Source: a virus
Taxonomy: Duplodnaviria > Heunggongvirae > Uroviricota > Caudoviricetes
Reading direction: 5' to 3' (one strand)
IMG/VR virus record: IMGVR_UViG_2713896787_000009
DNA length: 10,163 bases
Made by a program: the position numbers and the translations under genes. The notes beneath the pieces are model-generated. The model was given only the letters and a program-made list of their open reading frames with translations. It was not told where the DNA came from and ran no database searches. This document shows positions 253 through 6,269 of the stretch, piece by piece (the stretch's first letter is position 1; each line of letters opens with the position of its first letter).

Positions 253-642
253 TCAGGCGAGGTGGTATCCTCTGAGGGGTCTGTTACTCGAGAGGAAATT
301 GGTTATGAATACAATCAAGTTTTCTTGCCCAGAATGTGGTGGCGAAGTCTTTGACACATCCTTTAAGCCGCAGGGCTCTGACAGTTTCGCGGGAGCCATC
401 TGCAAAAATTGTGGTTCACCTTGTAAACTGAAGATGAGTCCTCGCAGTTCGATGACGAAATCGTTGACAATATCTTCGGTGCACTCACCAGAGACTTTCT
501 GAAGTAAAGGCGCATACCGCTTAGTTACCGCTCTGATAACTCTTACCTGTCCGGCAATGGCGCTGATATCAATATAAAGCGCCATCGCTGTTTCTTTGCT
601 GATCCCTGGACGCCTTCCATTCTGATGTTTGACTTCGCCCAC
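253..642 (-). CDS. Hypothetical protein (GTG start); N-terminal ~70 aa look protein-like, C-terminal half may be read-through or antisense shadow
   Basis: 129-codon ORF, GTG at 640-642 with AGAGGA 7 nt upstream; lies downstream of a putative leftward promoter; conflicts with the zinc-ribbon ORF on the + strand (305-502). Confidence 0.4.
   Translation of the reverse strand: MGEVKHQNGRRPGISKETAMALYIDISAIAGQVRVIRAVTKRYAPLLQKVSGECTEDIVNDFVIELRGLIFSLQGEPQFLQMAPAKLSEPCGLKDVSKTSPPHSGQENLIVFITNFLSSNRPLRGYHLA
305..502 (+). CDS. Small zinc-ribbon-like protein (CPECGG ... CKNCG); alternative to the overlapping minus ORF
   Basis: ATG at 305 with AGAGGA 8 nt upstream; two CxxCG motifs about 22 residues apart in the N-terminal 45 aa; C-terminal tail is low complexity; fully inside minus ORF 253-642 with wobble positions aligned. 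Confidence 0.3.
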   Translation: MNTIKFSCPECGGEVFDTSFKPQGSDSFAGAICKNCGSPCKLKMSPRSSMTKSLTISSVHSPETF

Positions 643-721
643 TGAGAAATCCTCTGCTTCCCCTTAACGCCGGGTAGCGGAACTGTTTGCTGAGAACACC
701 GTGCGGTGTCTTGATGAGTAG

Positions 722-751
722 AATTTAGAATAGCCTAAGAGTTATGGTCAA
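722..751 (-). promoter_or_regulatory. Putative leftward early promoter (TTGACC-18-TAAATT on minus strand) overlapping an operator-like dyad TTTAG-N6-CTAAG (724-739)
   Basis: -35 is plus 746-751 (ggtcaa), -10 is plus 722-727 (aattta); the dyad matches the YTTAG-N6-CTAAR sites in the dicA-cro intergenic region. Confidence 0.35.
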
Positions 752-849
752 GCTTTTTGTGTAGAAAAACCTAAGCTTCTTGATGTAAAAAACACAAGTA
801 TTTGAAAGTTTGTGCTTTTTATTACAGAGAGTTGCGAAAAAAAGGGGGG

Positions 850-1257: not shown

Positions 1258-1324
1258 ATTAGGTAATTCTAATTTTTCTTGACTTAGGTTTCTCTACGAT
1301 CTAGTTTCCTTAGGAAAATCTAAG
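1258..1324. promoter_or_regulatory. Divergent promoter/operator region with three phased dyads: O1 ATTAG-N6-CTAAT (1258-1273), O2 CTTAG-N6-CTACG (1283-1298), O3 CTTAG-N6-CTAAG (1309-1324)
   Basis: Three 16-bp dyads spaced 25 and 26 bp; rightward TTGACT (1279-1284) + 17 bp + TAGTTT (1302-1307); leftward -10 overlaps O1; layout mirrors lambda OR1-OR3. Confidence 0.55.
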
Positions 1325-1333
1325 GGGTTCGAT

Positions 1334-1560
1334 ATGTTGAAAATTGATGCTATAGCGTTTTTGGCAGCAAAACAAAGCTTGCCAATGTCGCAGGAGTTAG
1401 GCTGGCAAGCGTTGCTGCATGGGGGGAACTGGTTCCTGAAGGTCGCGCGATGCGCCTGCAAGAGGCATCCGGCGGGGAACTTCAGTACGACCCCAAAGTT
1501 TATGACGAATATCGTAAGGCAAAGCGGGCGGGGCGGTTGAACAATGAAAATCACCACTGA
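1334..1560 (+). pseudogene. Cro/DicC/YdaS-like regulator interrupted by a -1 frameshift in a G6 run (1421-1426)
   Basis: ATG 1334 with AAGGGG RBS; frame 1 stops at 1538-1540; adding one G restores a 75-codon ORF ending at TGA 1558-1560 with C-terminus LVPEGRAMRLQEASGGELQYDPKVYDEYRKAKRAG. Confidence 0.6.
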
Positions 1561-5188: not shown

Positions 5189-5947
5189 ATGAGGAACATA
5201 ATGGCAGGTTTTTTAATATTCCTGTCTTCTGCTGCTTATGCTGATATCAATCTGTATGGTCCTGGTGGCCCGCATACAGCCTTGCTTGATGCAGCCAAAC
5301 TTTATGCCGAAAAAACAGGTATTATAGTGAACGTTCATTACGGCCCACAGAACAAATGGAATGAAGATGCCAAAAAAAATGCAGATATCTTGTTTGGCGC
5401 ATCAGAACAATCTGCTCTGGCTATCATTCGGGACCATAAAGACAGCTTCAGTGAAAAAGATATTCAGCCTCTTTATCTGCGAAAAAGTATTTTACTGGTA
5501 AAGAAAGGTAATCCTAAAAATATCCGGAGTATTGACGACCTGACCAGACCTGGGATTGGCGTAATTGTTAATGATGGTGGTGGTACCAGTAATACATCAG
5601 GCACTGGCGTCTGGGAAGATATTGCCGGACGTAAAGGGAATATAGAAACTGTCGCCGCAATCCGAAAAAATATTATTTTATATGCGCCCAATAGCGGAAC
5701 TGCACGTAAGGCTCTTGAGAATCAGCCTGGAGCAGATGTCTGGATAACCTGGGCTGACTGGGCAGCCAGTAATCCAGAAATTGGTGATGTCGTGGAAATA
5801 GCGCCAGACTACGTGATATGGCGTGATATGAACATTACAGTACGTCAGGATGCAAATGATGAAACCCGTCGATTTGCAGAATGGCTACAAACCGATGAAG
5901 CGGCGCCTGCATTCAAAAAATATGGCTGGACCAGGAAAGGCACTTGA
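5189..5947 (+). CDS. paa: Secreted PEB3/AcfC/Paa-family protein (ModA-like periplasmic binding-protein fold), 252 aa
   Basis: ATG 5189 with AAGGAG RBS 6 nt upstream; signal peptide MRNIMAGFLIFLSSAAYA; motifs DINLYGPGGPHTAL, ADILFGAS, SNTSGTGVWEDI, WITWADW, FKKYGW; markedly low GC; own promoter region and terminator; no adjacent permease or ATPase genes. Confidence 0.65.
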   Translation: MRNIMAGFLIFLSSAAYADINLYGPGGPHTALLDAAKLYAEKTGIIVNVHYGPQNKWNEDAKKNADILFGASEQSALAIIRDHKDSFSEKDIQPLYLRKSILLVKKGNPKNIRSIDDLTRPGIGVIVNDGGGTSNTSGTGVWEDIAGRKGNIETVAAIRKNIILYAPNSGTARKALENQPGADVWITWADWAASNPEIGDVVEIAPDYVIWRDMNITVRQDANDETRRFAEWLQTDEAAPAFKKYGWTRKGT

Positions 5948-6090: not shown

Positions 6091-6189
6091 GCGAAAACGG
6101 TTTGCTGTAACGGCAGAGTTAAGTAGGATTGCTGCGGGTGCTTGAGGCTATCTGCCTCGGGCATGAACACCAACGGCAGATAGATAAAA

Positions 6190-6269
6190 GCCCCACCCGA
6201 CTATAAATCGAAGTGAGGCCCCTATATGCTCGTCACATATAGATTGCCTCTTACGGACCGAAAGGTCAA
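6190..6269 (-). ncRNA. Putative Sok-like antisense RNA region opposite the mok start (boundaries approximate)
   Basis: Position expected from hok/sok biology; minus-strand -35-like TTGACC (plus 6264-6269); no clean -10 or terminator identified. Confidence 0.25.

Follow-up and report, generated by a model that had tools for sequence, protein, structure and literature searches.

Predicted operators of a P22-immC/Qin-type immunity switch in the defective lambdoid STEC prophage PPompW

The short inverted repeats on either side of the repressor gene in a cryptic E. coli prophage are most probably the operators of an immunity switch of the P22-immC/Qin type in a defective lambdoid prophage, a reading to which we assign a probability of roughly 85% and in which binding is deduced from sequence. 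Several lines of evidence agree with the original prediction that these dyads act as operators of a DicA-like repressor/Cro pair and overlap the cro, repressor and PL-like promoters: enrichment of the motif in regulatory DNA, its conservation, its covariation with the recognition helix of the repressor, and homology to the Oc site of E. coli K-12 all point to such a role. The motif itself is not new and is already published as the core of the DicA operator Oc. The dyads share this core both with the validated Oc and with the palindromes of CP-933P, which identifies the motif picked out from the sequence as the published DicA-type operator core. The switch has its closest relatives in P22 immC and Qin dicA-dicC rather than in lambda.

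The window, by which we mean the whole 10,163-nucleotide stretch of DNA that was analysed, is 100% identical to DNA of E. coli E2863, a bovine STEC, and constitutes the immunity region of PPompW, a cryptic, defective lambdoid E. coli prophage of STEC. The element carries the name PPompW in phage records, and in the identical genome it adjoins ompW. Of 5426 complete E. coli genomes, 2813 carry related DNA, often at several sites within the same genome. The gene order comprises a leftward dicB operon including ydfC, a leftward gene for a helix-turn-helix repressor of 135 aa, a rightward cro, a YdaT-family gene, a DnaT-like O gene and P; dicB and ydfC are annotated downstream of the PL-like promoter in the identical genome, and the YdaT-like protein gives only a weak match to solved YdaT (8bt1, E = 0.21). 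Read on the plus strand, positions 1201-1340 include the start codon of the leftward-reading repressor gene as CAT at 1255-1257, and GGGG followed by the ATG of cro at 1334.

Reading of the sequence bears out the coordinates originally given for the dyads between the repressor and cro, their start-to-start spacing of 25 and 26 bp, and the promoter hexamers associated with them (Table 1). The consensus YTTAG-N6-CTAAR had been ascribed to four sites and describes two of them (724-739 and 1309-1324); the site adjoining the repressor start codon has A/T flanks and so lies outside this consensus, and the middle site has CTAC in its right half. The invariant element is TTAG-N6-CTAA, and the flanks are a subgroup-specific preference. 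The further site proposed at the leftward promoter is perfect and sits between the -35 and the -10, overlapping the -10, but it is not alone: the left operator has two sites, the second with its core at 761-774, and the distance between OL2 and OL1 is 36 bp. The palindrome of O-c extends to CCTTAG..CTAAGG at 1308-1325, and its right end overlaps the Shine-Dalgarno sequence of cro. Rfam assigned no RNA family to the operator regions.

Table 1. Predicted operators, promoter elements and genes of the immunity region (positions in the window).
Feature	Position	Strand	Sequence or basis	Remarks
O-a, operator adjoining repressor start codon (K-12 Oa equivalent; OR3-like role)	1258-1273, core 1259-1272		ATTAGGTAATTCTAAT = ATTAG-GTAATT-CTAAT	Exact core; carries leftward -10
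O-m, middle imperfect operator (K-12 Om equivalent; OR2-like)	1283-1298, core 1284-1297		CTTAGGTTTCTCTACG = CTTAG-GTTTCT-CTACG	Overlaps PR -35/spacer
O-c, operator over cro transcription start (K-12 Oc equivalent; OR1-like)	1309-1324, core 1310-1323		CTTAGGAAAATCTAAG = CTTAG-GAAAAT-CTAAG	Exact core
OL1, promoter-proximal left operator (dicBp operator)	724-739, core 725-738		TTTAGAATAGCCTAAG = TTTAG-AATAGC-CTAAG	Exact core
OL2, second left operator, upstream of -35	760-775, core 761-774		Plus strand TGTAG-AAAAAC-CTAAG; minus strand CTTAG-GTTTTT-CTACA	One core mismatch
-35 of rightward cro promoter (PR / dicCp equivalent)	1279..1284	+	TTGACT	Matches putative dicC -35 in K-12 (PMC3441716)
Weak -10 of cro promoter	1302..1307	+	TAGTTT; read from sequence	17 bp after TTGACT
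Candidate -10 of the repressor's own promoter (PRM-like)	1271-1266	-	TAGAAT	Inside O-a
Leftward PL / dicBp-like promoter	722..751	-	TTGACC-18-TAAATT; consensus scan	Homologous to K-12 dicBp; drives ydfC...dicB operon
DicA-type repressor gene, 135 aa	850..1257	-	ORF; Pfam HTH_3	Annotated dicA in PPompW phage records
cro/dicC homologue, P22_Cro family	1334..1560	+		Pseudogene here: one T lost from T6 run at 1359-1363

Repeats of this kind could in principle be chance or compositional features of AT-rich promoter DNA that have no operator function. The intergenic DNA is indeed rich in A and T, the hexamers CTAAAT and TAGAAT also resemble -10 elements, and the number of sites with at most one mismatch (five in the window against 2.9 expected) is not significant as a count alone. 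Exact sites behave differently: TTAG-N6-CTAA occurs three times in the window (725, 1259 and 1310) against 0.10 expected, a number reached in none of 200 shuffles, and the strict form YTTAG-N6-CTAAR occurs twice (724-739 and 1309-1324) against 0.01 expected. All five sites with at most one mismatch are confined to the two regulatory regions flanking the repressor gene. A 50-kb stretch of the identical genome, spanning the complete prophage together with flanking DNA, contains just the three exact sites of the window, against about one expected. The density of the motif outside operators was gauged on these 50 kb of genome and on 115 kb of family flanks, and this comparison had been set beforehand as a refutation test; a density comparable to that at the operators appeared neither in the window shuffles, nor in the 50-kb scan, nor in the family flanks.

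The same distribution holds across relatives. A repressor alignment was used to scan one genome per species, which gave 58 loci; the 37 with a full-length relative and the window itself make up a set of 38 loci. With regulatory DNA defined as the 120 bp before and the 200 bp after each repressor gene (12.3 kb in total), the exact core occurs 53 times in this fraction and once in the other 114.8 kb, an enrichment of about 500-fold in which the counts overstate the number of independent events because the surveyed loci are mutually related. Operators of the family occupy fixed positions at -15/-16 and -65/-66 from the repressor ATG, and downstream of the repressor gene an OL pair 35-36 bp apart brackets a TTGAC -35; across the family as a whole, OR and OL each have two strong sites. 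The presence of the core follows the protein. Among loci whose repressor has the recognition helix HV[TS][IV]SQWE, 20 of 29 contain at least one exact site and most of the others contain one-mismatch versions, whereas none of the nine loci with other helices (SISLWE, FKWE) contains an exact site, the same promoter architecture being kept there with other dyads.

Closer to the window, a scan of viral contigs yielded 19 distinct OR and 27 distinct OL sequences of the window's own group. At OR, 4 of the 24 core columns vary, compared with 21 of the 43 columns outside the cores (p = 0.01, with one sequence left out of the count for a 1-nt indel), and at OL the corresponding figures are 1 of 16 and 32 of 48 (p = 2e-5), both p-values being indicative only, since the sequences compared are related to one another. 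O-a shows no variant cells in the 19 distinct relatives, and among the 27 distinct OL sequences the 7 nt that separate the -35 from OL1 are hypervariable, next to operator cores that are nearly invariant. Conservation of the dyads in related immunity regions, likewise chosen in advance as a possible refutation, is thus found both in the family survey and in the within-group variability. Taken together with the experimental proof of the homologous K-12 site (PMC3441716), the shuffles, the 50-kb scan, the family survey with its covariation between site and recognition helix, and the within-group variability at OR and OL effectively refute a chance origin.

The predicted partner of these sites is a repressor that is 63% identical to K-12 DicA over 131 aa. 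Its N-terminal domain matches that of P22 c2 (E = 1e-21), and an AlphaFold model of the protein (pLDDT 88) superposes on the c2-operator crystal complex 3jxb with an rmsd of 0.5 A and about 62% identity. The C-terminal residues, about 50 in number, are a helical hairpin (model helices 87-98 and 101-134). Pfam recognised only helix-turn-helix families in the protein and no Peptidase_S24 or LexA-type cleavage domain. A Foldseek search gave no RovA/SlyA-like match for the C-terminal domain, and the published similarity of that domain to RovA/SlyA was not adopted here. Of the earlier description, a DicA-like repressor with lambda-like operators, the likeness to DicA is borne out by the sequence identity; the protein is not lambda-CI-like, lacking as it does the cleavage domain.

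The other member of the pair is damaged. In the identical genome cro is annotated as frameshifted, in agreement with an alignment to an intact copy, and the pseudogene is present in many identical genomes whose operator sites are intact. The intact product has 75 aa, is close to DicC, and belongs to the P22_Cro family (Pfam E = 3e-13; 1rzs E = 6e-7). The dyads accordingly fit the operators of a DicA-like repressor/Cro pair as first described, with the amendment that in this copy the Cro partner is encoded by a frameshifted pseudogene. Members of the P22_Cro family share operators with their repressor, and this raises the question of which protein the dyads mainly serve. They might be chiefly Cro (DicC-type) sites, or shared sites selected by Cro, with the repressor reading only sites of the O-c type; in K-12 only Oc bound DicA (PMC3441716), and in CP-933P the Cro-like YdaS occupies the PRM-side site first (PMC8630535). 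We consider this unlikely, because the sites remain intact although cro is a pseudogene in the window and in many identical genomes, because the presence of sites covaries with the recognition helix of the repressor, and because the left-operator sites lie at a promoter that DicA is known to repress (bioRxiv 10.1101/2023.04.14.536235).

The promoters that the dyads overlap are those named in the original prediction: TTGACT, the minus-strand TAGAAT and the leftward promoter are all present, the last by consensus scan. The position of TTGACT is fixed in nearly all related loci, heteroimmune ones included, and relatives have TAATCT or TATCTT as the cro -10 at the place where the window has TAGTTT. 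In the consensus scan TAGTTT fell under the threshold, and neither PR nor the PRM-like promoter was called because the hexamers of both are weak; their assignment comes from conservation. TAGnAT, in the sense of the repressor, is found inside the ATG-adjacent operator in every family member listed, while the spacers of the other operators vary freely. Given this conserved hexamer within O-a, and since no Shine-Dalgarno sequence precedes the repressor ATG on reading of the sequence, the repressor transcript should start 0-3 nt before the AUG and would be near-leaderless; paaR2 has been shown to be translated from a leaderless mRNA (PMC8630535). The -35 of the PRM-like promoter is poor (GAGAAA), consistent with a need for activation, and DicA bound at Oc has been reported to activate the repressor promoter in K-12 (PMC3441716). 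On the other side of the repressor gene, PL is followed by a conserved leader, which showed no folding advantage over shuffled sequence (z = 0.08).

The middle site is less certain. OR of the window has two exact dyads and a third with a core mismatch, which is kept in the window's subgroup and not family-wide. The likeness to lambda OR1-OR3 that had been proposed is borne out in part only: the family has two strong sites at OR, and the middle near-dyad is confined to the window's subgroup. O-m and OL2 are the same variant, TTAGGTTTYTCTAC, i.e. TTAGGTTT[C/T]TCTAC. At OL2 the core is invariant in the window's group and the equivalent position is an exact dyad in many somewhat more distant relatives, which, with the invariance of CTAC in the subgroup, argues that OL2 is a genuine operator. 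At O-m a single cell of 152 varies in the 19 distinct relatives, and CTAC is invariant. Adjacent operators are bound cooperatively by lambda CI over a spacing of 23-24 bp, similar to the 25/26 bp found here.

Two readings of O-m have to be weighed. It may be a functional middle site that depends on cooperativity, the reading towards which we lean, or OR may be bipartite, such that O-c, O-a, OL1 and OL2 are the only operators and 1283-1298 is a conserved half-site belonging to the -35/spacer region of the divergent promoters. In loci beyond the window's subgroup, no more than the left half survives at the middle position, fused to the -35, in the form TTGACTTAG followed by CGCG, TGAA or TTAA. 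Because the left half of O-m shares bases with the conserved -35 region, the promoter may account for some of the site's conservation; the element also has a core mismatch. In addition, in vivo tests in K-12 found Oc bound by DicA, while Om and Oa, each tested by itself, were not bound (PMC3441716, which does not show these data), and two of the four CP-933P repeats are also without one half (PMC8630535). The K-12 result implies that a perfect core is not sufficient, and O-a and O-m of the window may be weak or Cro-preferring. A bipartite OR does not, however, account easily for the right half: CTAC falls within the PR spacer, a stretch on which the promoter should impose no constraint, and yet it is invariant in 19 distinct relatives. 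Moreover, the unusual variant recurs at OL2, which in relatives is an exact dyad, and the 25/26-bp spacing is regular. We thus regard the bipartite arrangement as possible and the less probable of the two, and continue with O-m as a candidate operator of cooperativity-dependent type. One idea is that the variant shared by OR and OL is a selected, second class of site that depends on cooperativity.

Comparison with known systems places the switch more precisely. Qin of K-12 has the same arrangement of dicB operon, repressor and divergent cro followed by a ydaT/ydfX-like gene; its DicA is also of 135 aa and also non-cleavable, the -35 is the same TTGACT, and the core TTAG-N6-CTAA stands beside the repressor ATG, after the cro -10 and over the dicBp -10. 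In the K-12 Qin intergenic region TTAGCTAATGCTAA comes right after the dicA start codon, followed by the TTGACT -35 and, after the -10, by Oc, TTGTTAGTTATGACTAACAA. The latter, TTGTTAG-N6-CTAACAA, has the same core and the same relative position as O-c of the window. Binding of DicA to Oc has been demonstrated in vivo and is lost when a single A of CTAA is changed to C (PMC3441716); Oa and Om are, according to that paper, operator-like sequences that received their names purely on the basis of sequence. Three operators like those of lambda PR/PL are described for each of the dicA-dicC and dicA-dicBp regions in bioRxiv 10.1101/2023.04.14.536235, which cites Bejar; the same study shows that DicA is non-cleavable and that its control lies in an antirepressor, Rem, and in bistability with DicC. 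Qin differs from the window in the flanks (GTTAGY against YTTAGR), in the middle site (three core mismatches by our reading, against one), in the frameshift of the window's cro and in the location of the window's prophage beside ompW.

The resemblance to P22 immC lies in the c2-type N-terminal domain, the P22_Cro-family Cro, and symmetric 18-bp operators with several sites at both OR and OL. P22 has six sites (OR1-3 and OL1-3) against five in the window, and its half-site is TTAAG-like as opposed to TTAG, so that one contacted position differs. The c2 protein, of 216 aa (bioRxiv 10.1101/2023.04.14.536235), has a LexA-like cleavable C-terminal domain, in contrast to the short helical hairpin of the window's repressor.

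CP-933P likewise has divergent genes for a repressor and a Cro-like protein with a short region between them, in which 18-bp palindromes with the half-site GTTTAGTAA are evenly spaced; PaaR2 and YdaS give footprints on these palindromes, whose core is TTAG-N6-CTAA (PMC8630535). Both systems also share a PL-like promoter with further operators, a leaderless repressor mRNA (predicted near-leaderless here), a YdaT-family gene after cro, and repeats of which some are one-halved (2/4 in CP-933P; PMC8630535). CP-933P differs in that PaaR2 heads a paaA2-parE2 toxin-antitoxin operon and has a reported low similarity to DicA, and in having four repeats in 97 bp against three in 76 bp in the window. Neither paaA2 nor parE2 is annotated in the window, where the PL region directly follows the repressor gene.

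Lambda is the more distant parallel. It has divergent PR/PRM promoters overlapped by dyads 23-26 bp apart, a second set of operators at PL, and a leaderless repressor mRNA, which is predicted to be near-leaderless in the window. The operator sequence is unrelated, the fold of lambda Cro differs, and lambda CI is RecA-cleavable, unlike the window's repressor, which has no such domain. Relative to the predicted PRM-like start, the sites of the window would also be about 10 bp nearer than those of lambda.

These comparisons suggest how the switch may operate. By homology to P22 c2, a dimer of the repressor would read an 18-bp site through a c2-like helix-turn-helix, making contact in each half-site with six bases, Y-TTAG-R, and leaving the central four base pairs uncontacted. 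Five such sites would be available, of which O-c, OL1 and O-a are exact and O-m and OL2 weaker. Repressor at O-c, with or without O-m, would block TTGACT-17-TAGTTT and keep cro, the ydaT-like gene and the replication genes silent, and by analogy with K-12 it may also stimulate the repressor promoter. OL1 and OL2 lie on either side of the -35 and extend over the -10, and repressor bound to them would block the leftward promoter of the dicB operon. If excess repressor or Cro occupies O-a, which carries the -10 of the repressor's own promoter, repressor synthesis would be turned off. As the repressor is without a RecA-cleavable domain, induction would be expected to proceed via an antirepressor or through bistability, as shown for Qin, and the frameshift in cro should leave the switch of this copy locked towards repression.

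Specificity within the family appears to be written in the positions next to the core. The P22 repressor makes contact with bases 2-7 and 12-17 of its 18-bp site and reads the four in the centre indirectly (PMC4267663). Placed in this frame, TTAG corresponds to positions 3-6, the bases that are conserved or that covary lie at 2-7, and those in the centre vary. The half-site YTTAGR goes with helix-2 SQAALGK, as in P22 c2, and ...AHVTISQW in the window's subgroup; GTTAGR goes with TQREAA...AHVTISQW; and GTTAGY goes with the K-12-type TQRSLAK...SHVSVSQW. The Y...R flanks first noticed in the window are therefore a real preference of its subgroup, not a property of every site. The expectation that the sequence would predict the specificity of the repressor is also supported, in that sites covary with the recognition helix and the flanks appear to covary with helix-2/helix-3 residues. 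Since the contacted flank bases differ (YTTAGR against GTTAGY), the window and K-12 probably have different immunity specificities, and from the handful of lineages available we infer that the repressor of the window is probably heteroimmune to K-12 DicA. A more general proposal, to which we would give somewhat less than even odds, is that the DicA/c2-like family has one invariant core, TTAG-N6-CTAA, and that immunity specificity is set only by the contacted positions 2 and 7.

In sum, the logic of this switch is otherwise textbook lambdoid and is confirmed, unchanged. The exact operators of this allele would allow its regulon to be predicted, together with its cross-immunity with K-12-type DicA and with other STEC prophages. 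For K-12 itself, a recent regulatory survey treats the DicA site at dicC as a gold standard and gives the one at dicB as of unknown location or low evidence (PMC7567609), a gap that the conserved OL1/OL2 pair fills by comparison. The flank code is the only part that might perhaps merit further work. If true, it would provide a readable recognition code and predict, for the several DicA-type prophages that coexist in one STEC genome, which of them repress the dicB/dicF operons of the others and which do not.

The left side of the switch has a second left operator, OL2, which is missing from the sites of the original prediction and is kept in relatives. Directly downstream of the leftward promoter lies a leader that is nearly identical in the cryptic K-12 prophage Qin and at many other loci despite their diverged operators and repressors. 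Within it we find a small hairpin, GACACCGCACGGUGUUC; the folding energy of the leader is no better than that of shuffled sequences, and a comparison with Rfam gave no match. The leader could be a nut-like or a processing signal.

Features of the window
Feature	Position	Strand	Remarks
Second left operator, OL2	760-775		minus strand reads CTTAGGTTTTTCTACA; 36 bp from first left operator
PL leader, ~60 nt	~655-715	-	directly downstream of leftward promoter; catcaagacaccgcacggtgttctcagcaaacagttccgctacccggcgttaagggga
First leftward ORF after PL-like promoter	253-642	-	overlaps opposite-strand ORF 299-502
Zinc-ribbon-like ORF	299-502	+	antisense to 253-642 ORF
Paa gene, AcfC-family adhesin	5189-5947	+	within prophage early-right region
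hok/sok module	6136-6285 and 6226-6438	+ (both)	Rfam sok match (104 bits) overlapping hokD-like ORF
Cluster of four tRNA matches	9569-10163	+	after Q antiterminator gene

For the identical genome, RefSeq places a 99-aa hypothetical protein on the minus strand at about 286-585, and its end disagrees with that of the first leftward ORF as read here. The hokD-like ORF contains one masked base (N), the tRNA region is broken by a run of masked N around 9.85-9.9 kb, and the last of the four tRNA matches is truncated by the end of the window.

On the right side, cro/dicC (1334-1560, + strand) is frameshifted, with five T in the run at 1359-1363 where intact copies have six, and its Shine-Dalgarno sequence (1324-1327) reads GGGG whereas most relatives have GGAG. 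Intact and frameshifted versions are both in circulation among STEC genomes.

The C-terminal domain of the repressor (residues 87-134; gene 850-1257, - strand) is predicted to form a two-helix hairpin. A Foldseek search of this domain against the PDB returned no winged-helix match of the RovA/SlyA type, whereas a published claim holds that DicA has sequence similarity to proteins of this type.

At five related repressor loci (L014, L017, L018, L020 and L023) the recognition helix differs (..SISLWES) while the promoter layout is unchanged, and other dyads, such as ATTGAGAAAACTCAAT, lie upstream of the repressor genes; these loci look like separate immunity specificities. Many complete E. coli genomes match the immunity region of the window at 2-4 separate places, and thus several DicA-type prophages coexist in one genome, so that cross-repression among them is possible.
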